From assembly GCA_006218035.1 (NCBI GenBank), contig VBWC01000017.1:1408-65407 (forward strand): a stretch of 64,000 bases of DNA, given 5' to 3'. Position 1 is the stretch's first letter, and each line of letters begins with the position of its first letter. The DNA comes from Gammaproteobacteria bacterium (lineage in GTDB: Bacteria; Pseudomonadota; Gammaproteobacteria; VBWC01). A program made the position numbers and the translations under genes. The notes beneath the pieces were generated by a model. That model had not been told where the DNA came from, did not search any database, and worked only from the letters and a program-made list of their open reading frames with translations. Of this stretch, positions 8,114 to 62,248 are shown one piece after another.

Positions 8114-8480
8114 TATGGTTTTTTAACTTACCTCATCACTCGGAATTAATCGGCTTTACGGCTGAACTTGATTAAACTTGAATCAAGTAGGGTTTTTTAT
8201 CCGCGGGAAAATGCTGCGATTATTCGTGTCAAAACGCGTTTCTTGTTGCAGACCGGTGACGTGGCGTAGGCGCGGACGGCATGAGGCGCCGCCTACGGAC
8301 TCCGGGATTTCAGAGGGTTACCGACTGGCGACGGAATTCGGGGGTGGTTTTCGCGTCGCGCTCACTGAGCAGGCAGGCACTCGGATCTTGTTCAACCGGG
8401 CCTCGCGCGATTCAGATAGATAACGGGCCTCTGCGGTTCGCGCCACGCGACCAAAACGCAGGCACGACCGGCTATATTTA

Positions 8481-34492: not shown

Positions 34493-34714
34493 ATGGAAAA
34501 CTGGTTGCACGGTCACATGGCGGCGATTTTACTCGGCATCGAGATCCTGTGGGTCGGCGGTGTCATCGCAATTATCGTGTTTTATTTTTTGGTGAGAAGG
34601 CGATTCTCAGGCGCGAGGCATCAATCGGGAACCGCACTGTCGGATGAACACCCGCCGTCGACGTCCGGTGAAGATGAATCACCGGCGGCTGATCGAAAAC
34701 CGTCACGCAAATGA
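34493..34714 (+). CDS. Small single-TM protein with a charged/acidic tail (hypothetical)
   Basis: 73 aa: a hydrophobic helix AAILLGIEILWVGGVIAIIVFYFLV followed by RRRF...SDEHPPSTSGEDESPAADRK. I see no homology. Confidence 0.35.
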   Translation: MENWLHGHMAAILLGIEILWVGGVIAIIVFYFLVRRRFSGARHQSGTALSDEHPPSTSGEDESPAADRKPSRK

Positions 34715-35075
34715 AAACGATTGTCGTTTTAATTCGCAAACGAATAAAACAACGCCTGGATACGCGCTTTTTTTGTTAAATCGCATAAGCAATCTCACAT
34801 TCCATCCGGAATGTTTGCCACCCACAACGATTTAGCATTATTCCCCAAGAAAATAGTGCTTTATTAAGATATGACAACGCCCGATGAATATGGTAAGAAA
34901 TAACTTAACAAGACCGAGAATTCGAGTCTGAACGGTATTTCTTCGGTAGGGAGCAGGCCTGTTCGACAGGTTCCACGAGTAATTGGGTTGCCATATTTTC
35001 TTGCTGTTCGCGTAATGCCGAAAGAAGCGTGGCGAGTTAACGGGAATTAATAAATAACACCGAGAGGAATTCAAT

Positions 35076-36290
35076 ATGGTTACTGAAACAGTCATGCTGA
35101 AGATCGAATCCGCGAGACAAGCCGCGCAGGTCGCGGCCGCGCAGGGGAAGACATTTACCGTGGGCAAGGCCGTCGCAGGCGGTGGCATGAAGAACATGCT
35201 GATCCTGAATCCAACGACAGCAGGCGGCCAGTCCATCGCTGTGCAACTGGCCGGTAATAATCAGGCCGCAACCGTTGCCGCAATGGGCGGTAAAACTGTC
35301 ACCATCGGCAACTCGCCGTTGATGCTCGGCGGTGGCGCGAGTAAATGGGTAGTAGTCAAACCGGTTGCCGGTGCTATGACTGCCGGCGCCGCTGGAACCG
35401 GCGCCGCTGGTGTCGCGGCGAAAGGTGGCGCGGTCAAGGCGAGCGGTGCCGCCGCTGCGAAAGCAGGCATGGCCGCGAAAGCAGGTGCCGCGGGGATGGC
35501 GGTCAAGACCGCAGCCGCGGGTGCCGGCGCTGCAGCCGCAGCTGACATCACCATTACCAAGATCCAGGGTGCCAATTCGATTCTTATCGAGGTCACCAAT
35601 GCCAAACAGGCCGCCATGGCCAAGGCAGCCGGCGGCAAGGCGTTCACCGTGATGGCACCTCCGGTCGGCGCCAATGCCAACAATATGCTATTCCTGAAAC
35701 CCGCCGGCGTTGCGACAGGACAGGGCGGCAATCAGGTCATGATGCTGAAGGTTCAGGAAGGTGCCAATCAGATCCCGTCATTGATTGGCAAGACGTTCTC
35801 GGTTAACAAAGCGCCGATAGCGGCCGGCGTCGGTCCTAAGAACCTGATTATTCTGAAGCCGGTCACGGTGACCGCCAAGTCAGCAGCAGCCACGTCGGCG
35901 GCAGCGGCGAAAACCGCTGGCGGCAAGGCCGCGGCCGGTGCAGCGATGAAAACCGGTGCCACAGCAAAGGCGGCGGGCGGCATGGCCGGCAAGCCGATGA
36001 TGATGAATGCCGCGATGACCACCCCGGCGGCAACATCTGCCGGCAAGGCGTGCGTCGCCGGAAAAAGCGCCGCGACCGCAACAACAGCGGCAGCCACCGC
36101 GAAGACAACGGTAGCAGCGGGCACCATCTGGTCAGGCACCGGCTGGAGCCTCGGTCTTGGATTGGGCTTGGGCGCATGGGGCCCGGTGATCCTTGGCGGG
36201 CTCGCCGCGGCCGGCATTTATGGCTACGTGCGCAACAAGAAAGACCAGGAGGCCCACAAGTCCGACAACGAACTCCAGCCGGCACACTGA
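35076..36290 (+). CDS. Alanine-rich repeat protein with an Mms6/MamG/MamD-type LG-repeat C-terminal membrane anchor (MamD/Mms7-like)
   Basis: RBS GAGAGGA lies upstream of the ATG. The C-terminus is GTIWSGTGWSLGLGLGLGAWGPVILGGLAAAGIYGYVRNKKDQEAHKSDNELQPAH. There are four internal ~45-50-aa modules (GKTFTVGKAV..LILNP, GKTVTIGNSP..VVVKP, GKAFTVMAPP..LFLKP, GKTFSVNKAP..LIILKP). A terminator follows. Confidence 0.75.
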   Translation: MVTETVMLKIESARQAAQVAAAQGKTFTVGKAVAGGGMKNMLILNPTTAGGQSIAVQLAGNNQAATVAAMGGKTVTIGNSPLMLGGGASKWVVVKPVAGAMTAGAAGTGAAGVAAKGGAVKASGAAAAKAGMAAKAGAAGMAVKTAAAGAGAAAAADITITKIQGANSILIEVTNAKQAAMAKAAGGKAFTVMAPPVGANANNMLFLKPAGVATGQGGNQVMMLKVQEGANQIPSLIGKTFSVNKAPIAAGVGPKNLIILKPVTVTAKSAAATSAAAAKTAGGKAAAGAAMKTGATAKAAGGMAGKPMMMNAAMTTPAATSAGKACVAGKSAATATTAAATAKTTVAAGTIWSGTGWSLGLGLGLGAWGPVILGGLAAAGIYGYVRNKKDQEAHKSDNELQPAH

Positions 36291-36336
36291 GTCGGCGCGT
36301 TGAATTAACTATCTGAAACGCGCAGTACGACACACA

Positions 36337-36368
36337 AACCCGCCTGGCAAACCCAAGCGGGTTTTTTG
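36337..36368 (+). terminator. Rho-independent terminator of the MamD-like gene
   Basis: AACCCGC-loop-GCGGGTT followed by TTTTTG. Confidence 0.7.
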
Positions 36369-36453
36369 TTTCGTGGCACTACTGGCGACATGTCGAACGG
36401 AAGCGCTTCGAATTCCCGCCGTGCCTAAGTTCCGACGTACGACATTAACGAAG

Positions 36454-36814
36454 TGGCGCGCCCGAGACGGTGAGGCGAACGCTGTTCGCGAAGCGCCGCT
36501 TCGCGCGAGCCGAGCGCCTTGAGGCTGTGCCGAAAGGCCGGGAATCCGAGCGGGTGTGACATAAACAAAGTGAATGGCGCACCCGAGAGGGTGAGTCGGA
36601 ACCGAATGTCCATAAGACATTCGCAGTTCGGCGAACGCCCGAAGCGCAGCGTAGGGCCGGGAATCCGAACGGGCGCAGAATGAACGAAGTGAATGGCGCG
36701 CCCGAGAGGGCAAGGCGAGTGAAGTATGCGAAGCACCGCTTCGCGCGAGCCAAGCGCCTTGAGGCTGTGCCGAAAGGCCGGGAATCCGAGCGGGCGTGAC
36801 ATAAACAAAGTGAA
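36454..36814 (-). repeat. Tandem array of three ~120-bp units, each starting with a copy of the 3'-terminal 16 nt of tRNA-Arg
   Basis: Plus-strand TGGCGCGCCCGAGAGG or a close variant occurs at 36454, 36575, 36694 and, in the tRNA itself, 36815. That gives a period of 119-121 bp. Units 1 and 3 share about 85 nt that are nearly identical. Unit 2 has a different interior. Confidence 0.9.
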
Positions 36815-36891
36815 TGGCGCGCCCGAGAGGATTCGAACCTCTGACCATCGCCTTCGGAGGGCGGTACTCTATCCAGCTGAGCTACGGGCGC
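36815..36891 (-). tRNA. tRNA-Arg (anticodon CCG)
   Basis: The reverse complement folds as a cloverleaf: GCGCCCG-TA-GCTC-AGCTGGATA-GAGT-A-CCGCC-CTCCGAA-GGCGA-TGGTC-AGAGG-TTCGAAT-CCTCT-CGGGCGC-G-CCA. The anticodon loop CU-CCG-AA gives CCG. Confidence 0.9.
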
Positions 36892-36959: not shown

Positions 36960-37432
36960 GCCCTCCAAAACGCGGCACGGCCTCGGCCAGCGACCGGGAT
37001 TGCAGACGGAAGAACATCTCCAGATAGCGTTGCGTCTCCTGGCACTCCAGGTTGGTCACATATTTCCGGAAACCATAGATACGCGACAGCGTCATCGTGC
37101 GCTCCGCATACAGCTCCCAGGTGGAATGGGCGCGGATTTGCGCCAGTGTTCCGTTAGAAATCTCTTCCCAGTACTCCTTCCGCGGTGCAAGGCTCCAGAA
37201 AATCCGCGATCATGTCGGCGGCGCCCTGGCCGCGATCGGGTCGATGTGAAACCCGGAGACTTCCGGTTCGATAATTTCCAGTGGATCGCCGTAGCGCATT
37301 GCGAATGTCGGCCGGCCGGCGCTCATTGCCTCGATCACTGTCAGGCCAAACGGTTCGGTCAGCGCCGCGCCCGGGCTCCATGTCGCGGCCACGCACCAGA
37401 CCGTGCATGCTGATCAGCGGGATATACAGACC
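36960..37432 (-). pseudogene. Degraded sucrose-synthase / sucrose-phosphate-synthase family glycosyltransferase remnant
   Basis: Three frames are needed to read it: [21 protein letters not shown] (SPS-like N-terminus), then [38 protein letters not shown], then [67 protein letters not shown] (SuS-like C-terminus). Most of the gene is missing. Confidence 0.7.
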
Positions 37433-42925: not shown

Positions 42926-44695
42926 TCATCGCATTTTCTCACTGATGCTCTTTAGCTTGGGCTCCGCCTCTTCCAAGACAGCTGATAATCTCTCAAGTGA
43001 GCCGCCAAACAGGCCGCCACCTAAAGGTGGCCATGATTTATCTGATTTCCCTATTGCATTTCTTGCTTGCATTGCCAACCAGTCAACGTCACGCTCTTTA
43101 TGTTTCCAGATAAATGCGCCATAAGGCGTCCAAATATCGCTCCGTCCTAATTCCTTCTCCGCATCGACGTGAAGAAGGCACCACAGATATTCGAAATCAT
43201 CGAATGCTCTCTCATACTGTGTATCATCCGGAATTAGAATTCTGAGCGGGTCTCGAAGCCGCCTGCTCAAATAATCACTTACTGGAGTGTATTTCTGCGC
43301 CATCCCTTCGATAAGTTTTCGAGCATGGTCTCGATCCATCACATTGTGCGTATAAATACGGACAGGTGCTACCACACTTTTATCGTCGTCATGTTTTATG
43401 AAACTAGGACGTGATGCAATTTCATGAAGTACTGAGTAGTTCTCCGAGACAACGGCTGCAATCCCTGCGGCATAGACAAGTAGCAAGGCGGGATAACGCC
43501 TAATATTTGTCCACACCTGGTATCCACCCGTAGATACCGCCTTACCTATGATCAAATGGAACGCATCAAAGAAGGACCTTGCCTGACTGGGGCGAGCGAA
43601 GAAAGAACCGTTTGCGAATATATGGATTAGTTTTTCGCAACTAGCCTCTAATCGTAGCATTAAGTCGCCAACAGAATGTTTATCTGGAGCGACTCCTTCC
43701 ATATGGGAGAAGGCAGTATCAATAGCCGACCCTGCCTGCCCGGCCTCTGCTACAAGAAAATCACGTAATCGGATTCTGTATTTTTCCTCACTTAAATATC
43801 TTTTCAATGTAACAACAGCTGCCTGAGTAGTAACCGGATGTGGTCGGTCAAATTCCTCTAACGCGCCCACTTTTTCAAGGAGTGTCGGAAAGAAACCGTC
43901 AGCGTCTTTTATTTTGATAAAATCTGCGCTGTGCAGGGATATAAGTTTCTTGGCTTGCCCTCCTGGATCAGAGCGGCCTGTCCAATACATTGGGTACCGC
44001 CGTGTTTTAGACCTCTCTAAAGCTTTGCGTAGAGCCAAATCGTAATCGGCTGACCAGCCACAACAGATTAAACCATACTCATCGAAGATCTGGTCAAGTA
44101 GTCGATTCATCGGTGGCGCATATTTCGAGAGCGCTTCAAGTGAGTTCTTGATTCTGTGATCTAGATAGTCGCCATGAACCTTGATAACGGTACACTTTGA
44201 ATGAGCAAGTGGTGGCGCGCCCTTAGCAGCATCTGGCGACGCGATAACGATTGGCGCAATACCCTCGCCTTCAAGCGCGTTCTCAATCAGTCTATCAAAA
44301 TTTGTTGTTACAATAACTCGGATATGACCCGTAGCTACTAATTGGGCAATCGCCTTATGGGCAACGGTTGGAAGCTTTTTCCCTTCCTCCCTTTCTTCGT
44401 CAGATGGTTCGAAATACTGCTTTAACAGCTGCTGTTGCGCAGCTGATGTCGGAGCTATAGTTGCCAATAGCTCCGAATAATCCGGTTCCTTTTTGAACTT
44501 TTCTAAATACCATCCCGCTTCGTCACCTTCGCAATCCTCTTCATGAAGATGCGCGAGCTTAGAGACGAGATTAAGTGTAATTTCCCAGCCGGTAGGGATG
44601 CTTGCGCTACGTGAAACACCTGAACCAAGTAATAATGCGTACGTACCCTTCTGGGCGTGAACGTTAAATGAAAGAGTGAGAAGCGGATCTATCAT
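42926..44695 (-). CDS. SIR2-family (SIR2_2-type) protein with an unassigned ~310-aa C-terminal domain
   Basis: LLLGSGVSRSASIPTGWE, VIVTTNFDRLIE and VIKVHGDY motifs in the N-terminal ~270 aa. The gene is AT-rich: a hand count gives 26/60 G+C at 43801-43860, against 40/60 at 20401-20460. Confidence 0.8.
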   Translation of the reverse strand: MIDPLLTLSFNVHAQKGTYALLLGSGVSRSASIPTGWEITLNLVSKLAHLHEEDCEGDEAGWYLEKFKKEPDYSELLATIAPTSAAQQQLLKQYFEPSDEEREEGKKLPTVAHKAIAQLVATGHIRVIVTTNFDRLIENALEGEGIAPIVIASPDAAKGAPPLAHSKCTVIKVHGDYLDHRIKNSLEALSKYAPPMNRLLDQIFDEYGLICCGWSADYDLALRKALERSKTRRYPMYWTGRSDPGGQAKKLISLHSADFIKIKDADGFFPTLLEKVGALEEFDRPHPVTTQAAVVTLKRYLSEEKYRIRLRDFLVAEAGQAGSAIDTAFSHMEGVAPDKHSVGDLMLRLEASCEKLIHIFANGSFFARPSQARSFFDAFHLIIGKAVSTGGYQVWTNIRRYPALLLVYAAGIAAVVSENYSVLHEIASRPSFIKHDDDKSVVAPVRIYTHNVMDRDHARKLIEGMAQKYTPVSDYLSRRLRDPLRILIPDDTQYERAFDDFEYLWCLLHVDAEKELGRSDIWTPYGAFIWKHKERDVDWLAMQARNAIGKSDKSWPPLGGGLFGGSLERLSAVLEEAEPKLKSISEKMR

Positions 44696-44986
44696 TATTT
44701 ATCTCTATAATAAATCGTATCGTTCCACATATAGCACTTACACTAACAAAAAACAGAAGCACGTGTAACGTCTCCTCTTAGGCTCGGATGCAGCCGTTCA
44801 CCGGAGCCGAGAGTGGAAGCTTGCGCGTCTCTTGGTAACCTTTGGTGACCGAGAGGCAACGGCTGCGGTCGCCGGGAAGAAAATGCCATTAAAACAGGGA
44901 CCAGGTTCCCGCCGCTACGTGAAACGGTCCGGCCCAGGTAAGACCTTTATTTCCCCCGCACACCGGTCCTTGTCATGCGGCGTGAC

Positions 44987-45204
44987 TTATTCCACCGTCA
45001 CCGACTTGGCGAGGTTGCGTGGCTGGTCGACGTCGGTGCCCTTGAAGACGGCGACGTGGTAGGCGAGCAGTTGCAGCGGGATGGTGAAGATGATCGGCGA
45101 GATTTCGTCTTCGGTCGGCGCGACGTTCAGCACCTGCACGCCCGGGCCAGAGCGCACATCGGTCCCTGAATCGGCGAACACGATCAACTGGCCGCCGCGC
45201 GCGC
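44987..45204 (-). pseudogene. Displaced duplicate of the glmS 3' end (last 72 codons plus stop)
   Basis: 218 bp that match 46894-47111 with 7 mismatches by hand alignment. It encodes ...[64 protein letters not shown]. Confidence 0.9.
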
Positions 45205-45210
45205 ATTCTC

Positions 45211-46557
45211 CTATTTCAACGCCTCCAGCTTTTGTCTGAGATTGGCGGTCACCGTAAATGAGAACGCCCTGCCAATGGTCGTTTTTTCCAGAAACCCCAG
45301 ATCGACCAATTTGAGAAGATCGGTTCTGGCTGTGTCATAGGTGACATTATGCGAACCGCGATGACTCTGGATGGTAAAAATCGAATCAGGGCTTTTCAGT
45401 GCTCGATTTAACAAAGCGATTTGCCGATAATTTAATGATCCCTGCAGATCTTTCCTGATCAAGTGTTCTACGGTCTTTATCTCGGTCGCTTTCTTTTCAA
45501 GATACGTTAACAGGTCTTTTATAGCACTGTTTATGACCTCCAGTTGGTGGACAATAAAGTAGGTAACGTCGTTGTCGTCCGTTTCTGTGTATAAATATGC
45601 CCTTGTATATTTTACCGGCGCAGACTTCAATATCCTCGAGATCGATATAAATTCCATGGTCCAATAATCCTGTTTCAACATGGCCCAATAGAAAAGTGCC
45701 CGCGCGGTTCGCCCATTACCATCCTCGAACGGGTGATCATATGCCAGAAGAAAGTGAAGAATAATTGCCCTGATAACCGGATGAAGGAAAAAAGCCGAAT
45801 CTGTTGCATTGGCGAATTCACATATGTTCTGAAGCCTCGCGGCCAGATCTTTTGCTTTCGGTGGTACATAGATGATGGTTGCGTCTCTTTCATCACCGAC
45901 ATAGATATCATCGGACGTACGCAATCGCCCTACGGCCTTTGGATTATCCAACGTGTCGACTGTTAATATTCTATGCAGCTCAAATACCAGTTCCGGTGAG
46001 AGATCCTCGGTATAGATGTCGTTAATGAACTCCATCGCATAATAATTGTTCACTATCATTCTTTCCGATCTGTTTCGCGGCTTGCGTTTTTGCCGTAGCA
46101 TTTCCTTCGCTACTTTTCGGGTCGTTGCAGCGCCTTCAAGCTGACTCGACGTGATTGACTCCTCGATTAACGAATTAATCAGGTAGGTATCCCTGGTATT
46201 GGGATTAGCCACCTGTTCGCTGGCCTTCAATTCTCCGCCGCCATGAATGTCGATTTCGTGCAACAAGCGACGGACTACGTCAGGTTCCGCATAAACGAAG
46301 GGCTTACCCTCCTTGTCCAGGTGCGGAATTGTTCTGTAGAGGGCTCTACGTGCGAATTTTATGGCGAGCCACCATTCTGCGTGGCTCAAATCCTGAGGCG
46401 GTTGTTTTAGATGCCGTAGTTTGTCCCAATGGTAGTAGTTTCCTCCCGGATCAGGCCTGATTCCAAGAGACAAGATATTGCCCAGGCGCGTCGGCGAATC
46501 GCCCGCGGCTTTATTGAGCAGGGAATGGATGTCGGGCGCGGTAACCGGGATTTTCAT
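45211..46557 (-). CDS. Fic family protein (Fic domain with N-terminal inhibitory-helix motif and C-terminal wHTH-like region)
   Basis: [13 protein letters not shown] active-site motif. SSQLEG matches the (S/T)xxxE(G/N) inhibitory motif. The gene is AT-rich (hand count 24/60 G+C at 45601-45660). Confidence 0.85.
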
Positions 46558-46893: not shown

Positions 46894-48726
46894 TTATTCC
46901 ACCGTCACCGATTTGGCGAGGTTGCGTGGCTGGTCGACATCGGTGCCTTTGAAGACGGCGACGTGGTAGGCGAGCAGTTGCAGCGGGATGGTGAAGATGA
47001 TCGGTGAGATTTCGTCTTCGGTCGGCGCGACGTTCAGCACCTGCACGCCCGGGCCAGAGCGTACATCGGTCGCCGAATCGGCGAACACGATCAACTGGCC
47101 GCCGCGCGCGCGGACTTCCTGCATGTTGGATTTGAGTTTTTCGAGCAGCGCATTGTCCGGCGCGACGGTGATCACCGGCATGTCGGCGTCGACCAGCGCG
47201 AGTGGCCCGTGCTTGAGTTCACCGGCCGGGTAGGCCTCGGCGTGGATATAGGAAATTTCCTTGAGCTTCAGCGCCCCTTCCATCGCAATCGGATAATGCG
47301 CGCCGCGACCCAGAAACAGCGCGTGGTGCTTGTCGGCGAACTGCTGCGCAAGTTCGGCGATTTCCCCATCGAGTTGCAGCGCCTCGTCGATCTTGCGCGG
47401 CAGGCTTTCGAGCTGCTTGACGAGCGATGCCTCGATTTCTTCGGTAATACGATGACGCCGGCCGAGCACGATCACCAGCATCATCAGCGCCACAAGCTGC
47501 GTCGTGAATGCCTTGGTCGATGCGACGCCGATCTCCGGGCCCGCGCGCGTCATCAACACCACGTCGGACTCGCGTACCAGCGAACTCTCCGGCGCGTTGC
47601 AGATCGCCAGCGAATGGCCGATGCCGCGGCGCTTGGCGTCGCGCAGCGCGGCGAGCGTATCGGCGGTCTCGCCGGACTGCGAGATCGTTACGAACAGGCT
47701 GCGCGGCTGCAACACCGGATGCCGGTAACGGAACTCGCTGGCGACCTCGACATTGCATGGAATGCCGGCGAGCGCCTCGAACCAGTATTTGGCGACGAGG
47801 CCGGCGTGGTAGCTGGTACCGCAGGCGATGATCTGCACACGCTTGACCGCGTCAAACACTTCCGTGGCCAGCGGCCCGAACGCTCCTTCGAGCACGCGGT
47901 GACCGCTGATGCGGCCCTCAAGTGTCTGCGCGACGGCGCGCGCCTGCTCGAATATTTCCTTGGCCATGTAGTGGCGGTATTCGCCACGCTCGACCGAATC
48001 CGCCGTCAACTCGCTGAGCTTTATCGGCCGGGTGACCGCGTTGCCTGCGGCGTCATAGATGTCCAGCGTGTCCTTGGTGATGTCCGCAACGTCGCCTTCT
48101 TCGAGAAAGATAAAGCGCTGTGTCACCGGCAGCAGCGCCGCGACATCGGAGGCGATAAAGTATTCGCCAATACCGATACCGACCACCAGCGGGCTGCCGC
48201 GCCGTGTTGCGATCAGACGCCCCGGTTCCTTGGTGCTGACCACGCCCAGCGCATAGGCCCCTTCGAAATCACCGACCGAGGATTTGACGGCGTCGAGCAG
48301 CGTCGCCCCTTTGACGTGATAATCGTAAACCTGATGGGCGACAACCTCGGTATCGGTTTCGGAGGTGAATTCGTAGCCGGCCGTTTTCTGCTGCGCGCGC
48401 AGCGCCTCGTGATTTTCGATGATGCCGTTGTGCACCACGGCGACCGTATGACGGCAGATATGCGGATGCGCATTTTTTTCGGTGGGTTTGCCATGCGTCG
48501 CCCAGCGGGTATGGGCGATACCGGCGTGCCCGTGCAGTGGCTTGTGCCGGATGTTGTTTTCGAGTTCCACCACCTTGCCGACCACGCGCGCACGGGTCAG
48601 CTCGGCGGCGTCGTTCATGACGACCAGCCCGGCAGAGTCATAGCCGCGATATTCCAGCCGCTTCAGTCCTTCGATCAGGATCGGGACCAGATCGCGGGAG
48701 GCCGCGCCGCCAACAATGCCGCACAT
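46894..48726 (-). CDS. glmS: Glutamine--fructose-6-phosphate aminotransferase
   Basis: MCGIVG N-terminus, 610 aa, C-terminus ...[13 protein letters not shown]. Confidence 0.97.
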
Positions 48727-48730
48727 ACTG

Positions 48731-50119
48731 TTATTCCTCCACGCGTCGTTTCTTGACCGGCTTTTTCCAGCCGGGATGGGTCTGCTGCGGCGCGCGGCTC
48801 AGCGTCAGTTCGCCGGCGGGCGCGTCGCGTGTGATGGTCGAGCCTGCGCCGATCGTCGCACCGTCACCGATGCGCACGGGCGCCACCAGTTGACTGTCGG
48901 AGCCGACAAATACATCGTCGCCGATAATCGTCTGGTACTTGTTCGCGCCGTCGTAATTGCAGGTGATAGTACCCGCACCGATGTTAACGCGAGCGCCCAC
49001 CGTGCTGTCGCCGATATAGCTCAGGTGATTGATCTTCGAACCCGAGGCAACCGTGGATTTCTTGATCTCGACAAAGTTGCCGACGTGAACATCGTCGGCC
49101 AGCCGGGTCTGCGGTCGAACGCGCGCGAACGGACCGATGCGGCAGCCCGCGCCGATCACCGCGTCCTCGATCACGCAGTTAGCCAGGATCTCGACGTCGT
49201 CGCCGATCTCGACATTGCTCAGCAACACATTGGGACCGATCGTCACGCGGCTACCAAGCCGAACTGTGCCCTCGATGATGACGTTCACATCAATGGTGAC
49301 GTCGGTGCCATAGCTTATCTCGCCGCGCAAATCGAAACGCGCCGGGTCACGCAGCGTCACACCGTTTTTTAGCAGTTCTTCTGCACGCATCTTCTGGTAA
49401 TACCTCTCGAGTAACGCCAGTTGCGCCTTGTCGTTGACGCCCAGCACCTCGAAGGGCGAGGCGGGCGATACCGTGCGTATCGCAACACCATCCTGCACGG
49501 CCATGGCAATGACGTCGGTTAGATAGAATTCGCGTTGCGCGTTGCTATTGTCCAGCCGTTCGACCCACTGACGCAACTGGCCGGCGCGCACCGCCAGAAA
49601 GCCGGTATTGATTTCACGGATCGCACGCTGGCTATCGTTCGCGTCTTTTTCCTCGACGATGCGCGTTACGGCATGGGCCTTGTCGCGTACGATGCGGCCA
49701 TAACCGGCGGGATTATCCAGCTCGACGGTCATCAGTGCCAGCGCGCCGTCGGCGCTGGCGGCGACGAGGCGCCGCAAGGTTGCAGCGGAAATCAGCGGCA
49801 CATCCCCGTAAAGCACCAGTACCGTGCTGGACTCATCGATGCCGGGCAAGGCCTGCGCGACCGCGTGGCCGGTACCCTGCTGCTGCTCCTGCTTGACCCA
49901 CCGCACAGAGTTCGGCGGCAGCACGGCGTCCAGTTTGGCAATGACCTGGTCACCGCCGTGGCCGTAGACGACATGGATGCTGGCATCGCCGAGTTGTCTG
50001 GCCGTCGCGATCGCGTGCACAAGCAGCGGCTGGCCGCCGATGTCGTGCAGTACCTTCGGCAACCGCGAGCGCATGCGCTTGCCTTCGCCGGCGGCGAGTA
50101 TGACAACGCTGATGGTCAT
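48731..50119 (-). CDS. glmU: Bifunctional UDP-N-acetylglucosamine pyrophosphorylase / GlcN-1-P acetyltransferase
   Basis: [15 protein letters not shown]-terminus and a C-terminal hexapeptide-repeat domain. Confidence 0.95.
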
Positions 50120-50326
50120 TGGTGTAGTGTCGGATTTCGCCCGTCAGGATTCAAGCCGGATGGCGCCGTATGGCAGATGTCTGCACCGATGGTCGGGCAG
50201 GAGCGAGGCGTCGTAACGACGCGGCGATCGGTCAGGAAAGGTCTGATGAATTCCCGAGCGGTCATCCCCGCGCCAGCGCGATGGCAGCGACGACGCAATG
50301 GATCGGAAATATCATCACACGGCCGC

Positions 50327-50752
50327 CTAGCGACCGGTCTTCTTGCGCAGATGCTGGATGGCTTGCAAGCGCGCTGAGGCCTCGATCAGCTCGGCTTGTG
50401 CCCTCGCGTAGTCGATATCCGACTTGCGGTCCTTGAGCGCCTGTTCCGCACGTTGCTTGGCCTCGATCGCCGCGGCCTCGTCGATATCCTTGGCGCGCAC
50501 CGCGGTGTCGGCCAGCACGGTCACGGTATAGGGCTGCACCTCGAGCATGCCGCCGGAGACGTAGAAGAAATCCTCCGTGCCATCCTCGGTCTGCACGCGC
50601 ACCTCGCCGGGGCGGAGCTGCGTCAGTAACGGCGCATGTCGGGGCAGAATGCCAACCTCGCCCATGACCGCCGGCGCAAATACCATGCGTGCCTTGCCGG
50701 AGAAAATGGCTTCCTCGGCGCTGACGATGTCGACATGCATGGTGAAGGCCAT
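50327..50752 (-). CDS. atpC: F1 ATP synthase epsilon subunit
   Basis: 141 aa, assigned by operon position and family similarity. Confidence 0.9.
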
Positions 50753-50773
50753 GGTATTTCTCCGGCTGGTGAC

Positions 50774-52198
<1,425 letters not shown>

Positions 52199-52227
52199 CT
52201 ACCCGCTTACCTCGTTGCCCACCAACA

Positions 52228-53094
52228 CTACACGGCGGCGGCGCCACCGACGATTTCCGATATTTCCTGTGTAATCGCCGCCTGTCGCGCCTTGTTGTAA
52301 ACCAGTTGCAATTCGCCGATCAGGTCACCGGCGTTATCGGACGCCGACTTCATCGCGACCATGCGCGCCGCCTGCTCGCAGGCGATGTTTTCGACGACGC
52401 CCTGGTATACCAGCGATTCGATATAGCGCATCATCAGACCGTCGAGCACCGCTTTCGCCTCGGGCTCGTACAGATAATCCCAGTGATGCTTCAGCTGCGC
52501 ATCAAGCTCGCCGGCCTCGATCGGAATCAGCTGATCAATGTGCGCCTTCTGCGTCATCGTGTTGACGAATTCGTTATAGACGACGCACAACCGGTCGATG
52601 CGCCCTTCGCTGTAGGCGTCGAGCATGATCTTGACCGTGCCGATCAGGTCACTGAGCTGCGGCGCGTCACCGAGATGATCGACCTGGCCAACGAGGTTGC
52701 CGCCGAGCCGTTTGAAGAAGGCGTGCGCCTTCTTGCCGATCGTGCACAGGTCGATCTCTACCTTCTCCTTGTGCAGCTGCCGCATTTCGCCGAGCAGCGC
52801 CCGGAGCATATTGGTGTTCAGGCCGCCGCACAGGCCGCGATCCGACGAGATAACGATGAAGCCGACACGCTTGACCTCTTCGCGCGGCTTCAGGTACGGA
52901 TGCTTGTACTCCGGATGCGCGTGGGCCAGATGGCTGATCACGGCGCGCATCTTGTCGGCATAGGGTCGCGATGCGGCCATGCGGTCCTGCGCCTTGCGCA
53001 TCTTGCTCGCCGCGACCATTTCCATCGCGCGCGTGATCTTCTGAGTATTCTTGATACTCTTGATCTTGGTGCGTATCTCTTTGCCGACGGCCAT
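52228..53094 (-). CDS. atpG: F1 ATP synthase gamma subunit
   Basis: 288 aa. N-terminal [27 protein letters not shown]. Confidence 0.95.
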
Positions 53095-53108
53095 GCGCTA
53101 ACCCCGGA

Positions 53109-54650
53109 TTACCAGACGTGGCTCTTCTTGAAGCTTTCGATCGCGCCGCGCAGGTCCTTGACGATGTCGTCGTTGTAGTCGCCGCTCTGGTTGATCTTGT
53201 TGAGTAACGCGCCGTGTGACGACTTCATGTAGCTGTGCAGCGCATGTTCGAAATCGACGATCTTGCTCAGTTCGACGTCATCGAGAAAGCCCTGGCTGGC
53301 CGCGAACAGCGATACCGCCTGCTCGGCCACCGACAGCGGCTGATACTGCTTCTGCTTCATCAGCTCGGTGACGCGCTGGCCGCGCTCCAGCTGCTTGCGC
53401 GTGGTGTCGTCCAGATCGGAGGCAAACTGCGCGAACGCCGCCAGTTCACGATACTGGGCAAGGTCGAGACGCACGCCACCGCCGAGCTTCTTGATGATCT
53501 TGGTCTGCGCGGCGCCACCGACACGCGACACCGACAGGCCGGCATTGATCGCCGGACGGATACCGGCGTTGAAGAGGTCGGTCTCAAGATATATTTGGCC
53601 GTCCGTAATCGAAATCACATTGGTCGGCACGAACGCGGACACGTCACCGGCCTGGGTTTCGATGACCGGCAAAGCCGTCAGTGATCCGGTCTTGCCTTTC
53701 ACCCTGCCGCCGGTCAGTTTCTCGACATATTCGGGATTGATACGCGCGGCGCGCTCAAGCAGGCGCGAATGCAGATAGAACACGTCGCCCGGATAGGCCT
53801 CGCGACCCGGCGGACGGCGCAGCAGCAGTGATACCTGACGATACGCCCAGGCCTGCTTGGTCAGATCGTCGTAAACGATCAGCGCGTCTTCGCCGCGGTC
53901 ACGGAAGAATTCGCCCATGGAACAACCTGCGTACGGCGCGATGAACTGCATCGCCGGCGAGTCGGACGCGCTCGCCGCCACGACGATGGTATGGGCCATC
54001 GCGCCGTGCTCTTCGAGCTTGCGCACGACATTCGCCACCGACGACGCCTTCTGGCCGATCGCGACATAGATACATTTAATGCCGGTGCCTTTCTGATTGA
54101 TGATCGCATCGATCGCCACCGCGGTCTTGCCGGTCTGACGATCGCCGATGATCAGCTCACGCTGGCCACGGCCAATCGGCACCATCGCATCGATCGACTT
54201 CAGACCGGTCTGCACCGGCTGGCTAACCGACTGACGCTGGATGACGCCCGGCGCCACCTTCTCGATCGGTGACGTACCGGCGGCAGTGATCGGACCCTTG
54301 CCGTCGATCGGGTTACCAAGCGCGTCGACGACGCGGCCGAGCAGGCCTTCGCCGACCGGCACCTCAAGAATGCGTCCGGTACATTTGGCGCTGTCGCCCT
54401 CACTGATATGCTTGTAGTCACCCAGAATCACCGCGCCGACCGAGTCGCGCTCCAGGTTCAGCGCCATGCCGAAGGTGTTGCCCGGAAACTCGATCATTTC
54501 ACCGGACATCACGTCGGCCAGGCCGTGTACGCGCACAATACCGTCAGTAACACTGACCACCGTGCCCTCGGTTCTGGCTTCGGTGACCGCCTCGAAGCTG
54601 TCGATACGCTTTCTAATCAGATCGCTGATTTCGGATGCATTTAGCGCCAT
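53109..54650 (-). CDS. atpA: F1 ATP synthase alpha subunit
   Basis: GDRQTGKTA Walker A, 513 aa. Confidence 0.97.
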
Positions 54651-54669
54651 GTTTTGTTTCCTCGACTAA

Positions 54670-55206
54670 TTAATGCGACAGTGCGACTGCCAGTTTTCCG
54701 AGCTTGCCGGTAACGGACCCGTCAATGACCAGGTCCCCGGCGCGGACGATCGCACCGCCAATCAAACTCTCGTCGGTCCGGCAGGTCAGACTGACCTCGC
54801 GGCCCAGTCGCTTTTTCAGCGCCGCGGCCAACCGCTGTTTCTGTTCCTCGGTAATCTCAAACGCGGACACGACCTCGGCCTGCATCGATCGCTCGGCCTC
54901 GGCGCGCAGCTTTTCATACAGCGCGGCGATCTCCGGCAGCACACCCAGCCGTCGGTTACGCGCCAGCACCCTGAGCAGACTCACCGCCTTGTCACCCGGC
55001 CGGTTGCCGGCAACCTCGGCGATGATCGCGACCCGCTGGTCGTCGGTGACACGCGGGCTGACGATCAGCCGCCGCACGTTCAGATCGTTCACGGCAAGCG
55101 CCAGCCTTTGCAGGTGCTCCGACCATGCCGGCAGCGCGCGCTGACTCTGCGCCAGCTCGAATACGGCCTGGGCATAGGGGCGGGCAAGTGTGCTTTTCTC
55201 GGCCAT
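54670..55206 (-). CDS. atpH: F1 ATP synthase delta subunit
   Basis: 178 aa, starts TLARPYAQAVFELA. Confidence 0.9.
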   Translation of the reverse strand: MAEKSTLARPYAQAVFELAQSQRALPAWSEHLQRLALAVNDLNVRRLIVSPRVTDDQRVAIIAEVAGNRPGDKAVSLLRVLARNRRLGVLPEIAALYEKLRAEAERSMQAEVVSAFEITEEQKQRLAAALKKRLGREVSLTCRTDESLIGGAIVRAGDLVIDGSVTGKLGKLAVALSH

Positions 55207-55217
55207 CGGTCAACGTC

Positions 55218-55688
55218 CTAGATTTGCGCGATCAGGTCTTTCATCAGGTCCGCATGCGCCCTCGCATCGACCTCGCGCCGCAGGATCTTGCCGGCGCCGG
55301 CCGTCGCGAGCAGCGCGACCTGCCCGCGCAGATGCTCCTTAGCGCGGTTGGCTTCCTGATCGATCTCGGCCCGCGCCGCCTTCAGCAGACGCTCGCCTTC
55401 TATACGCGCGTTGGCCTTGCCCTCTTCGGCGATTTCCGACGCACGCTTTTCGGCCTGCGCAAGAATCTCTGCGGCCTGCGCCTTGGTGTCCTTCAACACC
55501 TCCTTGGCGCGCTTTTCGGCGAGTTCCAGTTCGTGCCTGCCCTTGTCCGCCGCGGCCAGGCCGTCGGCGATGCGCTTCTGGCGCTCGGCCATCATGGCCG
55601 ACAGCGGCCCCCACAGGACCCGGTTAACAAACCAGATCAGCAGGACAAAGGCGAGCACCTGGCCAAACAATGAAACAGTAATATTCAC
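55218..55688 (-). CDS. atpF: Fo ATP synthase subunit b
   Basis: 156 aa, single TM followed by a long charged helix. Confidence 0.9.
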   Translation of the reverse strand: MNITVSLFGQVLAFVLLIWFVNRVLWGPLSAMMAERQKRIADGLAAADKGRHELELAEKRAKEVLKDTKAQAAEILAQAEKRASEIAEEGKANARIEGERLLKAARAEIDQEANRAKEHLRGQVALLATAGAGKILRREVDARAHADLMKDLIAQI

Positions 55689-55732
55689 GGTCTTGCGCCT
55701 CCGGTAAAAAAGACGTCAGGCAACACTGACTG

Positions 55733-56029
55733 CTAGCCGCCCAATGTCTTGATCGCCGCGTCCATCGCGCCGATGAACGGGTTGGCGAACAAAAACCACA
55801 TCGCGAACGCCAGAATAATGAACGGAAACGACTCCATCAGACCGGCAAAGATGAACATGTTGGTCATCAGCGCCGGGCGCATTTCCGGCTGACGCGCGAT
55901 ACCTTCGAGCGTCTTCGCGCAGATCAGGCCCCAGCCGATCGCGGAACCGAGACCGGCGGCGGCGAGAATCACGCCGACGCCAACGGCGGTCGCGGCGTAA
56001 ATTTCAGAAATCATCTCGGGTGTCATCAC
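55733..56029 (-). CDS. atpE: Fo ATP synthase subunit c
   Basis: Two-TM hairpin with the GIARQPE loop. Confidence 0.9.
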   Translation of the reverse strand: MMTPEMISEIYAATAVGVGVILAAAGLGSAIGWGLICAKTLEGIARQPEMRPALMTNMFIFAGLMESFPFIILAFAMWFLFANPFIGAMDAAIKTLGG

Positions 56030-56125
56030 TTCTCTCCTTATTTAAACAAACAATCGAAACTCGAAACTATTCGGTTCCCGCTACTGATGCGATCGGGATT
56101 TCGCTATGCAAACACCGCCATGCCA

Positions 56126-56971
<846 letters not shown>

Positions 56972-57001
56972 TCAAACTCCCAGACCACTTTACGCTTATT
57001 A

Positions 57002-57403
57002 TTACGCCGAATTCCCGGTGCTGCGCGGCTGATCCCTGAACCGTATCAAGTAACCCAGCTGCGCCGCGACAAAACCGCTGATCAACGGCACCGGTTTAAG
57101 CCCCAGCATTGCCAGACCGACGCCGAACAACGCGAGCACCAGCACAAACCGCAGTGCGGCACTCATATATAAGACCCAGGTGCCGGTGCCGGGATTGTGC
57201 GGCGCTGCCTCTCCCGCCATTAAGACGCCGCGGCTCAACATCCATGCCGCCACTACGCTTATTAGCCCGCCGTAACAGGCCGATCTGGCCGCTGCCTCAC
57301 CCTGGACCCAAAAAAAACCGGTCGCGACCAGCCCCGTGATCGCGATCTGCAGAACCATGACCTTCCTGGCCTTTACAACCAGCTCATGCGCTGCAGGGTC
57401 CAC
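57002..57403 (-). CDS. atpI: ATP synthase protein I
   Basis: 133-aa hydrophobic protein upstream of atpB. Confidence 0.75.
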   Translation of the reverse strand: MDPAAHELVVKARKVMVLQIAITGLVATGFFWVQGEAAARSACYGGLISVVAAWMLSRGVLMAGEAAPHNPGTGTWVLYMSAALRFVLVLALFGVGLAMLGLKPVPLISGFVAAQLGYLIRFRDQPRSTGNSA

Positions 57404-57407
57404 CGCC

Positions 57408-57608
57408 TTAACCGAACCTGCTTAACAACTTGTGGACCTTCATGAAGCCACCGATCAGGCCAAGGCCTCCGCAGATCAACATGAAAACCGGCCGGCTGCC
57501 CAGCCAGGTGTCCACCACATACCCCAGCAAAAATCCGGCGACCACCATCGACGTCAGCATCGTACCCGCCCCGATCAATAACGGAGCCACCCTGCCGGGT
57601 TTGGTCAT
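57408..57608 (-). CDS. AtpZ/AtpI-family small membrane protein. The start is uncertain.
   Basis: Two TM helices (LLIGAGTMLTSMVVAGFLLGYVV and VFMLICGGLGLIGGF) at the head of the atp operon. The listed ORF extends to 57713. Confidence 0.5.
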   Translation of the reverse strand: MTKPGRVAPLLIGAGTMLTSMVVAGFLLGYVVDTWLGSRPVFMLICGGLGLIGGFMKVHKLLSRFG

Positions 57609-57725
57609 GCCGGAGACACCCGAAAAATTGACCGCGAAGTATAACGTGCGTGCGGCCACAGCTGCAATAGTTGTTCGTGGGAGCCGCCGCCAGTTTCCCG
57701 GGTACTTGCGCAAGCTACCGCTATT

Positions 57726-58607
57726 TTATTTTATGTGCGACAAAATCCCGTCGAGTTCGTCCAGGCTGTTGTACTGGATAACGAGCTTGCCCTTGCCGCG
57801 CGCGCCTGGCTGAATCTGCACCGCGGCACCCAGTTTTTCACTCAGGTCATGTTGCAGCTGGCGCACGTTGGGGTCAACCGCCGCCGCCCGGGTCGCCGGG
57901 CGCTTGCCGTGGTCCTTCTGCAGCTGCGCGACCAGTTGTTCGGTTTCGCGCACTGACAGCCCCTTCGCTACCACGCGATGCGCGGCTTCGCTCTGCATGC
58001 CGCCGGTAAGCCCGAGCAATGCACGTGCATGGCCCATTTCCAGCTGCCGGTTTTCGACCAGTTGTTTGACATCCTGGTTGAGTTCCAGCAGGCGCAGCAG
58101 GTTCGATACGGCGGCACGCGACCGGCCAACCGCCTCAGCGGCCTCCTGGTGCGTCATATTGAATTCGCGTATCAGGCGCTGCAGCGCGCCGGCCTCCTCG
58201 AGCGGGTTGAGGTTTTCGCGCTGGATATTCTCGATCAACGCCATCGCGATCGCCGCCTTGTCCGCTACGTCACGGACGATCGTCGGTATCTCACTCAGCC
58301 CGGCCAGCTGCGCGGCGCGCCAGCGGCGTTCGCCGGCGATGATCTCGTAACCACCGACGTCCAGCGGCCGGACAACCACGGGCTGGATCACGCCCTGCGC
58401 GCGTATCGACGCGGCGAGGTCCTCGAGCGATTCGGTATGCATATCGTGACGCGGCTGGTAACGGCCGCGGCGGATCAGGTCGACCGGAATCATGCGCAGA
58501 TCGCTCCCCGGCGCCGCGCGCGGCGCTTCAGCCGCTTGCGCCGGTACTGCGTTGCCGAGCAGCGCTTCCAGACCGCGACCCAGCCCGCGCTTTTTGTTAA
58601 CCGCCAT
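57726..58607 (-). CDS. parB: Chromosome partitioning protein ParB
   Basis: KRGLGRGLEALL N-terminus, GERRWRAA, and an HTH. Confidence 0.95.
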   Translation of the reverse strand: MAVNKKRGLGRGLEALLGNAVPAQAAEAPRAAPGSDLRMIPVDLIRRGRYQPRHDMHTESLEDLAASIRAQGVIQPVVVRPLDVGGYEIIAGERRWRAAQLAGLSEIPTIVRDVADKAAIAMALIENIQRENLNPLEEAGALQRLIREFNMTHQEAAEAVGRSRAAVSNLLRLLELNQDVKQLVENRQLEMGHARALLGLTGGMQSEAAHRVVAKGLSVRETEQLVAQLQKDHGKRPATRAAAVDPNVRQLQHDLSEKLGAAVQIQPGARGKGKLVIQYNSLDELDGILSHIK

Positions 58608-59430
58608 CCTGCATTTCCATCGTTACGGCCGGACCGTGGGATTCGGCCGGCCTGGTGGGCGTGTCTTTGGCATCACGGCGTATGATTTCGCCGGCCAGCG
58701 CCAGGTACGACAGCGCGCCACGCGAGCTTTTATCATACAACAGCACCGGCAGGCCATGGCTCGGGGCCTCGGCGACGCGGATATTGCGCGGAATAATGGT
58801 CCGGTAGACCTTGTCGCCCATGTGGCTCAGCAGTTGGTCGGACACCTCGATGGCCAGCTTGTTGCGCGGGTCATACATGGTGCGCAGCACGCCCTCGACG
58901 CGCAGTTGCGGGTTCAGCGTCTGGTGGATCTGCCTGACGGTATCGAGCAAGGCGGATAATCCTTCAAGCGCATAGTATTCGCATTGCATCGGGATCATCA
59001 CGCCGGCCGACGCGACCAGCGCATTGACGGTCAGCATGTTCAGCGAAGGCGGGCAGTCGATCAGAATATAGTCGTAGTCGTCCAGTACCGGCTCCAGCAC
59101 GCTGCGCAGGCGGCGTTCGCGATTCGGCATGTTTATCAGCGCGACTTCCGCGGCGGTCAGGTCGGCGTTGGCGGGTAACAGCGTATATCCGGCCGGTTCG
59201 GCGCGAACGACCGCGTCCGCCAGCCCGCATTCGCCCAGCAATACGTCGCAGGCACTCACTTCCAACTGGTACTTGTTGACGCCGCTACCCATCGTTGCAT
59301 TGCCTTGCGGATCGATATCGATCAGCAGCACGCGGCGGCGTGTCGCCACCAGCGACGCAGCGAGGTTGACCGACGTCGTGGTCTTGCCGACGCCGCCTTT
59401 CTGGTTGGTGACCGCGATAACCCTGCCCAT
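58597..59430 (-). CDS. parA: Chromosome partitioning ATPase ParA/Soj
   Basis: NQKGGVGKTTT deviant Walker A. Confidence 0.95.
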   Translation of the reverse strand: MGRVIAVTNQKGGVGKTTTSVNLAASLVATRRRVLLIDIDPQGNATMGSGVNKYQLEVSACDVLLGECGLADAVVRAEPAGYTLLPANADLTAAEVALINMPNRERRLRSVLEPVLDDYDYILIDCPPSLNMLTVNALVASAGVMIPMQCEYYALEGLSALLDTVRQIHQTLNPQLRVEGVLRTMYDPRNKLAIEVSDQLLSHMGDKVYRTIIPRNIRVAEAPSHGLPVLLYDKSSRGALSYLALAGEIIRRDAKDTPTRPAESHGPAVTMEMQDGG

Positions 59431-59445
59431 GGTTGCCTGCTGTGA

Positions 59446-60099
59446 CTACGTCAAGTTGGCGGACTGTATCTGTATCAAATGCCGTTCGGCGTCCAGACCG
59501 GGTACTGTCACCTCCGTGACCGCTACTACTCTATATGGTTCGGGAATTTCTTTCAGCTCCGTTTCCGGGTAGCGCCCCTTCATCGCCAGAATAAGCCCGT
59601 CCGGCGCGCACAAGTGGCCGGCTTCCCGGACAAAATCCGCGGCCGACGCGAACGCCCGCGAAACCACCGTGGTAAACAGGGCGGGCGGCCGGTAATCGGC
59701 GGCGCGCGCCTGGACCACCTCGACGTTGGTCAGGCCGAGCTCGATCATGGCCTGCCGCACGAAGCGCGTCTTCTTTTGCTGCGTATCCACCAGCACGAAC
59801 GAAAACCCCGGCCGCGCCAGCGCCAGCGGGATGCCGGGCAGGCCGGCGCCGGTGCCGATGTCGGCGATACGCGGGCCCTGCAGCCAGGGCGCGACGGAAA
59901 GGCTGTCGAGCAGATGCTGGACGATCATCTGCTCGCGCGTTTTGTTCCCGGTCAGGTTATAGACGCGATTCCATTTCGCCAGCAGCGCGACATATTCGAG
60001 CAACTGCCGCTGCACCCCGGCGTCCAGTGACAGGCACAGCCGGTCGATGCCCTGAGACAAGGTGGCGTCAGGGGAAAAGTTGTGTGGTTGGCCGGGCAT
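59446..60099 (-). CDS. rsmG: 16S rRNA (guanine527-N7)-methyltransferase
   Basis: KWNRVYNLT and DIGTGAGLPGIPLA SAM motif. I chose the start at internal Met 60099. Confidence 0.9.
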   Translation of the reverse strand: MPGQPHNFSPDATLSQGIDRLCLSLDAGVQRQLLEYVALLAKWNRVYNLTGNKTREQMIVQHLLDSLSVAPWLQGPRIADIGTGAGLPGIPLALARPGFSFVLVDTQQKKTRFVRQAMIELGLTNVEVVQARAADYRPPALFTTVVSRAFASAADFVREAGHLCAPDGLILAMKGRYPETELKEIPEPYRVVAVTEVTVPGLDAERHLIQIQSANLT

Positions 60100-60272
60100 A
60101 CGGGTATATCGCGATCGGGCTTGATGTTTGCGGCGTATTGGGTATTGTAGTGCGCGCGCCGTGCCACCGACCAAGGTTTTTTGTTATTGTCTGGCCGACC
60201 GCGCCTGTAACGGCCCGCGCACCCGGAGGCCGGGCATACCGTCAGCAATCCGCAATACTGGAGGACAGCTTC

Positions 60273-61501: not shown

Positions 61502-61600
61502 GGGTAACTTCCTCCGTGGCGTTATCATTTTGCGCCCGATATCAGAGCGGCGATTGTGAGGCTTGCACCACGGTCTTCGCAACCATGGTGGCCGCGTGGA

Positions 61601-62215: not shown

Positions 62216-62248
62216 TGGCGGGTAACGGTGCGGCAGGCCGGCGTGTTA

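Follow-up and report, generated by a model that had tools for sequence, protein, structure and literature searches.

What is a gene for a MamD-family protein doing by itself among housekeeping genes? The question is raised by a 64,000-nucleotide stretch of DNA (the window) from contig VBWC01000017.1 of the assembly GCA_006218035.1, which encodes a 404-amino acid protein of this family (Table 1). MamD (Mms7), Mms6, and MamG are regarded as magnetosome-specific proteins, and a solitary MamD in such surroundings is an unusual setting. The original prediction, made from the letters of the window alone, proposed either that the host is magnetotactic and keeps a satellite copy of the gene outside its magnetosome cluster, or that proteins with the LG (Leu-Gly) repeat have a non-magnetosome role, and this is still the right dichotomy. 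The gene is a new, solitary member of the MamD family in an undescribed gammaproteobacterial lineage from groundwater.

The open reading frame (ORF) lies exactly where it had been placed, starts with ATG, and begins and ends with the residues that had been quoted (MVTETVMLKIESARQAAQVAAAQGKTFTV and GTIWSGTGWSLGLGLGLGAWGPVILGGLAAAGIYGYVRNKKDQEAHKSDNELQPAH, respectively). The NCBIfam equivalog model of MamD, NF040916, matches the protein with 210.1 bits (E 4.5e-62), compared to a curated cutoff of 100, in three stretches that correspond to the N-terminal modules and the C-terminus, the best of which is the non-repetitive N-terminus (residues 3-109). The models of Mms6 (NF040917; 58 bits, cutoff 200) and MamG/Mms5 (NF040985; 36.9 bits, cutoff 100) stay below their cutoffs and cover only residues 289-400 and 310-391, respectively. 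The predicted membership in the LG-repeat magnetosome proteins could therefore be sharpened to that of a MamD orthologue, which has only the C-terminal LG/transmembrane segment in common with Mms6 and MamG. From end to end, the protein aligns with MamD proteins from P. magneticum, Magnetococcales, and gammaproteobacterial magnetotactic bacteria (MTB) at 40-46% identity, and BLASTP with compositional adjustment matches its first ~100 residues to residues 1-99 of the MamD of AMB-1/P. magneticum (E 1e-17). All family-invariant residues are kept, and no shift is seen at conserved positions relative to the MamD proteins of MTB. Among 5.8 billion proteins searched, 58 homologues were found, each of which carries the Pfam family PF28196 (Magnetosome_regulatory); they include a protein named magnetosome protein MamD from Paramagnetospirillum magneticum and many proteins from metagenome-assembled genomes (MAGs) of Magnetococcales, gammaproteobacterial, and alphaproteobacterial MTB. 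Precomputed PF28196 matches also exist for three orthologues (P0001-P0003; 97%, 83%, and 73% identity). The local Pfam copy gave no match for the 404-amino acid protein, but it is older than PF28196, and its missing match is thus no evidence against homology.

Composition was controlled with profiles built only from family members outside the lineage and with 1000 composition-preserving shuffles. The real scores were 88.9 bits for the C-terminal 60 residues, 100.7 bits for modules 1-2, and 90.6 bits for modules 3-4, whereas the shuffles reached 9.8 bits at most. The original prediction had conceded that the LG segment might fail to align once its Ala/Gly content was corrected for; this segment holds its 88.9 bits against a shuffle maximum of 9.1. 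The C-terminus of Mms6 that had been given for comparison is matched nearly exactly by a database protein (P0283), and the C-terminus of the present protein is identical to this Mms6-type C-terminus at 31 of 52 residues. Collectively, at the level of sequence, the gene is confirmed as a genuine full-length member of the MamD (Mms7) family, the similarity of which is not compositional.

The family itself is small. An exhaustive phmmer search of 1.84 billion representatives at 50% identity found 162 proteins at E ≤1e-3, 62 at 1e-10, and 18 at 1e-30. The host lineage collapses to one representative (P0003) among them, the next match is 46% identical, and no short LG protein has a C-terminus more than 67% identical to that of the present protein. 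The architecture is thus not one that is common in non-magnetotactic taxa, a possibility that the original prediction had raised against itself. Among the matches listed, all family members with a source name come from genomes or MAGs labelled as magnetotactic.

Four modules of ~46 amino acids align with one another (residues 3-48, 52-98, 166-211, and 219-264) and follow the pattern xxhhhKhExAxQAAxxxxxxGKTFTVxxxP...nhLhLKP; the two halves of the protein match each other by BLASTP with E values of 1e-8 and 2e-7. Four modules of about this size with Ala-rich linkers had been predicted; the number of modules stands, but linkers are found only after the first pair and after the second pair, not between every module. 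AlphaFold2, supplied with the 58 aligned homologues, predicts a beta-alpha-beta-beta unit for each module with a predicted local distance difference test score (pLDDT) of 70-88, disordered linkers at residues 101-166 and 266-364, and a single helix at residues 369-395. A separate model of residues 1-102 has a pLDDT of 75.7 and a predicted template modelling score of 0.67. When either the full model or the 102-residue domain model was compared with the PDB by Foldseek, nothing matched at E <0.1, so that the module fold appears to be without a solved relative; weak OB-, Mop-, and HIRAN-like matches were rejected. The length of linker 1 varies within the lineage owing to indels between members. 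Up to the LG repeat, the protein is strongly basic (net charge +27, 8.6% Lys), as is typical of its relatives (mean +19.5, range +7 to +35), and charge and composition are family-typical overall. The charged tail of 19 residues holds four acidic and four basic residues and is net neutral, whereas it is net acidic in most family members. The C-terminal signature includes the family-invariant columns L359, L361, G362, G369, and P370. There is no N-terminal signal peptide, and the Gly-rich C-terminal helix is the sole hydrophobic segment.

Work on Magnetospirillum (AMB-1 and MSR-1; PMC8833152 and PMC11628618) suggests a mechanism for this anatomy. There, MamD is found in the magnetosome membrane, consists of a large N-terminal region and a single C-terminal helix, and inhibits growth of this membrane until it is cleaved by MamE; the cleavage was mapped to amino acids 229-259 of the 314-amino acid AMB-1 MamD, that is, to the linker before the LG repeat, and a 7-kDa C-terminal fragment (Mms7) is tightly attached to magnetite crystals (PMC8833152). 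Membrane targeting of MamD requires MamF-like proteins, members of a superfamily (HOTT/DUF4870-Tic20) with a wide distribution outside MTB (PMC11628618). From its position, we infer that linker 2 of the present protein corresponds to the MamE cleavage region. Because the modules, linker 2, the LG/GxxxG helix, and the tail are all kept, we also infer by analogy the same molecular behaviour as in Magnetospirillum, namely C-terminal anchoring, self-association, and protease-gated release of an inhibitory N-terminal part. The C-terminal Gly-zipper helix would anchor the protein in an intracellular membrane, probably inserted with the help of a MamF-like/HOTT (DUF4870) insertase, and the LG/GxxxG segment could mediate self-association. 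The basic N-terminal modules would hold back the growth of the membrane compartment until linker 2 is cut by a protease of the HtrA type (MamE in MTB); after this cut, a small LG peptide may stay in the membrane at the mineral surface.

The gene is neither young nor confined to one assembly. A protein identical to that of the window is encoded on contig WSNP01000007.1 (280,843 bp) of GCA_009773435.1 and on ENA and Logan contigs from other samples, and an orthologue with 97% identity is present, in the same gene order, in GCA_023266115.1, the species-representative MAG of Gammaproteobacteria bacterium isolate nzgw581. Two further lineage members were obtained from Logan assemblies (L056, 83% identity; L057, 73% identity), in which the gene lies directly 3′ of the same endonuclease/exonuclease/phosphatase-family (EEP) gene and ~70-amino acid ORF. 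The upstream neighbours are thus alike in all four lineage loci, whereas cytochrome c and BNR/Sortilin protein genes take the downstream place of tRNA-Arg and pfkB in L056 and L057. Two scans of JGI metagenome contigs found no further lineage member. Nei-Gojobori estimates of the ratio of nonsynonymous to synonymous substitution (dN/dS) are 0.058-0.073 for all six pairs of the four orthologues, and the synonymous divergence (dS) between the three sublineages is 1.05-1.38. The ~240-nucleotide leader is near-invariant in the four loci and far better conserved than the synonymous sites of the coding sequence (dS >1). Since a dN/dS of ~0.06 at a dS above 1 is combined with a conserved leader and a shared locus, the gene is, as judged from these substitution patterns, functional, under strong purifying selection, long resident, and vertically kept. 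Recent horizontal acquisition was rejected on the grounds that the G+C content at third codon positions (GC3) is host-like (0.70, compared to 0.66-0.80 in neighbouring genes) and that the locus is common to members separated by dS >1. In a rough neighbour-joining tree without bootstrap, the lineage branches deeply and by itself, and no MTB is a close sister to it.

The host is an uncultured groundwater gammaproteobacterium. The two sequencing runs SRR8863435 and SRR8863439, both of which contain the mamD-like locus, belong to bioproject PRJNA512237 (PMC11549363). Comparison of PolA places the host among uncultured Gammaproteobacteria, the closest relatives of which show 72-85% identity; the best named genera, Thiohalobacter, Sulfurivermis, Ca. 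Tenderia, and Thiogranum, show only 68-69%.

In other genomes, mamD keeps different company. At least 47 MamD/LG loci from species-representative genomes were collected and their ORFs clustered; the recurrent neighbours were MamT, MamQ, MamS, MamB/M, MamO/E, MamP, MamA, MamK, FeoAB, and short LG proteins. The homologues P0013 and P0021 from other assemblies both lie within magnetosome clusters, and most other homologues with annotated flanks adjoin mam genes. In three magnetosome-cluster contigs, a 99-amino acid gene with the Pfam domain PF09650 (PHA_gran_rgn) adjoins mamD (L067, 11119-11418; L068, 9232-9531; L069, 4302-4601). Three MAGs labelled Gammaproteobacteria or Piscirickettsiaceae (L048, L053, and L054) encode short LG-repeat proteins that match only residues ~345-403 of the query and that sit in a conserved multi-gene cluster, which includes a ~108-amino acid family recurring in MTB loci. 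Detached copies are also known. The confirmed alphaproteobacterial MTB YQV-1 carries a MamD homologue with 195 bits to NF040916 and without the first modules (L041 scaffold_68, 7661-8524), the neighbours of which are not mam genes but folC, a gene for an S1-domain (Tex-like) protein, and a PAS histidine kinase gene, and a MamD-like gene is mentioned for the MIS islet of AMB-1 (PMC8833152). Detachment alone therefore does not exclude a magnetotactic host.

On balance, we lean slightly towards the view that the protein works in a magnetosome-type organelle encoded elsewhere, in which case the host would be an unrecognised carrier of magnetosome genes whose mamD has moved out of the cluster and come under its own conserved control region. 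This view is based on the unchanged constraints of the family, on the apparent confinement of members of known origin to MTB, and on the precedent of detached copies; the retention of the invariant residues together with family-typical charge and composition suggests the same constraints and hence the same job as in MTB. A number of observations weigh against it. When all ORFs from ~57 MTB loci were compared with the window by tblastn, the MamD ORF was the sole mam match, and the remaining matches were generic, falling on histidine kinase/response regulator genes (1-3700) and a ParA-like gene (58.7-59.4 kb). There is no second mam gene within 35 kb upstream or 28 kb downstream, and the gene does not lie in a magnetosome-cluster neighbourhood (mamGFDC, mms6, or mamAB); the neighbours are polA, dsbA, acetolactate synthase, EEP, tRNA-Arg, pfkB, the atp operon, and glmUS. 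The tblastn comparison and the annotation of the neighbours thus bear out the prediction that the gene is solitary among housekeeping genes with no other mam or mms gene in the 64 kb. A search with a MamO profile found no MamO that could be traced to either assembly, although this search was insensitive, yielding 19 matches and recovering two of its own five queries; its four unnamed NCBI matches belong to other assemblies. As weak evidence, a single LG-motif locus is found for nzgw581 among the matches listed. Gammaproteobacterial MTB (L027 and L029) have mamD inside the cluster core. The two PolA relatives that were inspected (72% identity) come from ordinary MAGs of groundwater Gammaproteobacteria, in which mamD is not found beside polA, neither MAG of the host lineage carries a magnetotactic label, and the sampled habitats are groundwater, compared to the sediment redox interfaces typical of MTB.

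A tentative but serious alternative is that the host has no magnetosome cluster and that the MamD-family protein, either an old acquisition or a leftover of a magnetotactic ancestor, has been co-opted for a non-magnetosome role. It would then be a Lys/Ala-rich membrane protein that is anchored by its C-terminus and associates with itself, and it could, for example, shape or limit another intracytoplasmic membrane or an inclusion, or work at the cytoplasmic membrane; a generic HOTT/DUF4870 protein would insert it, and a housekeeping HtrA protease would process it. Several of the above points speak for co-option, namely the lack of anything mam-like elsewhere in the 64 kb, the failure of the insensitive MamO-profile search to trace a magnetosome protein to either assembly, and relatives and a habitat that are not known as magnetotactic. 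The same could be said of the solitary monocistronic unit in the core chromosome with its own conserved leader in four of four lineage members, of the deep separate branch in the MamD tree, and of the tail that is net neutral rather than net acidic; furthermore, relatives of the HOTT/DUF4870 insertase are widespread outside MTB (PMC11628618). On the other hand, conserved positions and composition are unshifted compared to the MamD proteins of MTB, and co-option is without precedent, as every other source-named member among the matches listed comes from an MTB-labelled genome or MAG. Moreover, the absence of a cluster applies to the 64-kb window and to the insensitive MamO-profile search.

It is very improbable that the gene is a decaying, functionless relic that remained when a magnetosome island was lost. 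Such losses are known, and the gene stands alone beside a tRNA gene with repeats that resemble attachment (att) sites. However, the ORF is intact in four diverged genomes with a dN/dS of 0.06 at saturated synonymous sites, the ribosome-binding site, leader, and terminator are conserved, and the tRNA adjacency is found in one sublineage only; a relic is effectively refuted by the dN/dS values estimated from these sequences. An assembly or binning artefact, in which an MTB fragment was joined to a non-MTB contig, could be imagined for metagenome-assembled genomes, but it has next to no credibility because at least seven contigs, assembled independently (NCBI, ENA, and Logan) from several samples and more than one continent, show the same junctions and because GC3 is like that of neighbouring genes. 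Equally negligible is a low-complexity protein that resembles MamD/Mms6 by composition only, as 26% Ala, 15% Gly, and the lack of a match in the older local Pfam copy might suggest, since the shuffles (≤9.8 bits, compared to 89-101 for the real segments) rule out such a look-alike, the best NCBIfam stretch consists of the non-repetitive N-terminal modules, and the orthologues have their precomputed PF28196.

The two surviving possibilities have different consequences. If the protein serves a magnetosome-type organelle, a previously unrecognised magnetosome-bearing gammaproteobacterial lineage would be present in aquifers, and mamD would be separable from its cluster and could be placed under its own conserved control region. 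Co-option would instead make it the first member of the MamD family to work outside magnetosomes, in a second, undescribed role such as the control of another membrane compartment or inclusion. Co-option would also provide a handle on a generic membrane activity of LG-repeat proteins, comprising an oligomerising Gly-zipper anchor, signal-peptide-free insertion, and protease-gated regulation, and could inform on the role of MamD before, or besides, magnetite biomineralisation.

Table 1. Coordinates of the mamD-like gene, the predicted parts of its product, and the adjoining elements in the window
Feature	Coordinates	Strand	Evidence
MamD (Mms7)-family gene, 404 amino acids, stop included	35076..36290	+	ORF, NF040916 score, end-to-end alignment, dN/dS
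Modules 1 and 2 (residues 1-98), two predicted beta-alpha-beta-beta units forming one small domain	35076..35369	+	pLDDT 70-88; BLASTP E 1e-17; 100.7 bits
Linker 1 (residues 99-165), Ala/Gly/Lys-rich, predicted disordered	35370..35570	+	pLDDT <50 (101-166); 82% A+G+T+K
Modules 3 and 4 (residues 166-264), second predicted beta-alpha-beta-beta pair	35571..35867	+	Model, internal repeats, 90.6 bits
Linker 2 (residues 265-348), Ala/Lys/Thr-rich, predicted disordered	35868..36119	+	pLDDT <50 (266-364)
C-terminal signature GTIWSGTGWS-(LG)4-AWGP, predicted Gly-rich membrane helix, tail RNKKDQEAHKSDNELQPAH (residues 349-404)	36120..36287	+	Invariant columns, helix model, 88.9 bits
Ribosome-binding site GAGAGGAA	35062..35069	+	Invariant in 4/4 lineage loci; core GAGG eight bases 5′ of ATG
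Intrinsic-terminator-like hairpin and T-run, ending the monocistronic unit	36336..36370	+	Scan; sister genome L001 differs by one base
Conserved leader/promoter region	34835..35075	+	Four-locus alignment
Conserved 70-73-amino acid ORF between EEP gene and leader	34493-34714	+	Present in 4/4 lineage loci

The control signals of the gene agree with what had been predicted, since it has its own ribosome-binding site and a terminator-like hairpin with a T-run (Table 1). The AT-rich leader was also counted correctly, with 20 G+C in the 60 bases at 34861-34920, and the whole of 34715-35075 has 41% GC, compared to 59% in the window. Inside the leader, a near-invariant AT-rich block (34838-34906) has 33% GC. 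An Rfam search of the leader found no family, and no conserved site was found for the consensus sequences of Fur, FNR, CRP, and sigma-54. RNAalifold proposed a pairing of UAUUUCUUCGG with the Shine-Dalgarno region, which was rejected because it shows no covariation, is absent from the single-sequence minimum free energy fold, and has a z of +0.86 relative to shuffles. A 10-codon upstream ORF in the AT-rich block (ATGACAACGCCCGATGAATATGGTAAGAAATAA) was rejected as coding, since its changes are mostly non-synonymous and its stop is lost in L057. The leader is most simply explained as a promoter/operator with a 5′ untranslated region. In the ORF that precedes the leader, the N-terminal ~40 amino acids are conserved (MxxWLHGHMxAxLxGIEILWVGG..AI..FYF..RRR, with one transmembrane helix) and the C-terminus is variable. 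It was rejected as a hidden Mam protein because the 73-amino acid product shows no similarity to any ORF of at least 40 amino acids in MTB loci and has no Pfam match.

Downstream of the gene, positions 36454-36838 hold ~3 tandem copies of a ~120-nucleotide unit, which adjoin tRNA-Arg(CCG) at 36815-36891 on the minus strand. The final copy overlaps the 3′ end of this tRNA gene (GGCGCGCCCGAGAGGATTCGAACC); the copies before it have a related motif, GGCGCxCCCGAGAGGG..., and the corresponding region of the sister genome L001 contains fewer units. By their sequence, the units look like a repeated att site or a duplication of the tRNA end at an integration hot spot. Between tRNA-Arg and pfkB, a 60-amino acid ORF fragment (37210-37392, minus strand) with ...GDPLEII..., which resembles the C-terminal motif of GT1/GT4 glycosyltransferases, is probably a pseudogene remnant. 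The genes identified in the window are mnmG, rsmG, parB, the atp operon, glmU, glmS, greA, a cytochrome b/dihaem cluster, pfkB, tRNA-Arg(CCG), mamD, the 73-amino acid ORF, the EEP gene, acetolactate synthase, dsbA, polA, and type II secretion genes. At 46894-63937, the order mnmG(gidA)-rsmG(gidB)-parA-like-parB-atp operon-glmU-glmS is that of the classic origin-proximal block of Gammaproteobacteria, which places the mamD-like gene ~30 kb or less from the probable replication origin region; the gene is in the core, origin-proximal chromosome. Between greA and glmS, a low-GC insert (42926-46557, minus strand; 0.47, compared to 0.59) encodes a SIR2-like protein (PADLOC PDC-S65, 665 bits), a Fic protein (SoFic, 150 bits), and a 66-amino acid ORF. 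It is missing from the otherwise syntenic nzgw581 contig and is thus a candidate defence islet.

Among known systems, MamD (Mms7) of Magnetospirillum/Paramagnetospirillum is the closest counterpart of the present protein, with ~42-45% identity where the two can be aligned, and the layout is the same throughout: four modules, Ala-rich linkers, GTIWxGxG-(LG)n-AWGP, Gly-rich helix, and charged tail. The present protein is 60-90 residues longer owing to its longer linkers, and its tail is net neutral rather than acidic; its gene stands alone in the core chromosome, not in a mamGFDC, mms6, or mamAB cluster, and its host is not known as magnetotactic. With Mms6 and MamG (Mms5), it has in common the last ~55-100 residues, which comprise the LG repeat, AWGP, a Gly-rich helix ending in xYxY, and a charged tail. 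These two proteins lack the four N-terminal modules, and the present protein, being below both model cutoffs, is a member of neither. The tail-anchor-like layout has been described for MamD, Mms5, and MamJ (PMC11628618). MamJ and other clients of MamF-like (HOTT/Tic20) proteins show the same arrangement of an Ala-rich soluble N-terminal part and a Gly-rich, moderately hydrophobic C-terminal GxxxG helix with no signal peptide (PMC11628618), whereas their N-terminal parts have no sequence homology to that of the present protein, for which dependence on a HOTT insertase would follow by analogy. Like the detached MamD copies in the AMB-1 MIS islet and in YQV-1, the present gene lies away from the main mam operons. 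The hosts of those copies are known MTB, and AMB-1 also has a canonical MamD in its mamGFDC cluster (PMC8833152), whereas the 64-kb window shows neither a second copy nor a cluster, and the single gene is accompanied by its own conserved control region.

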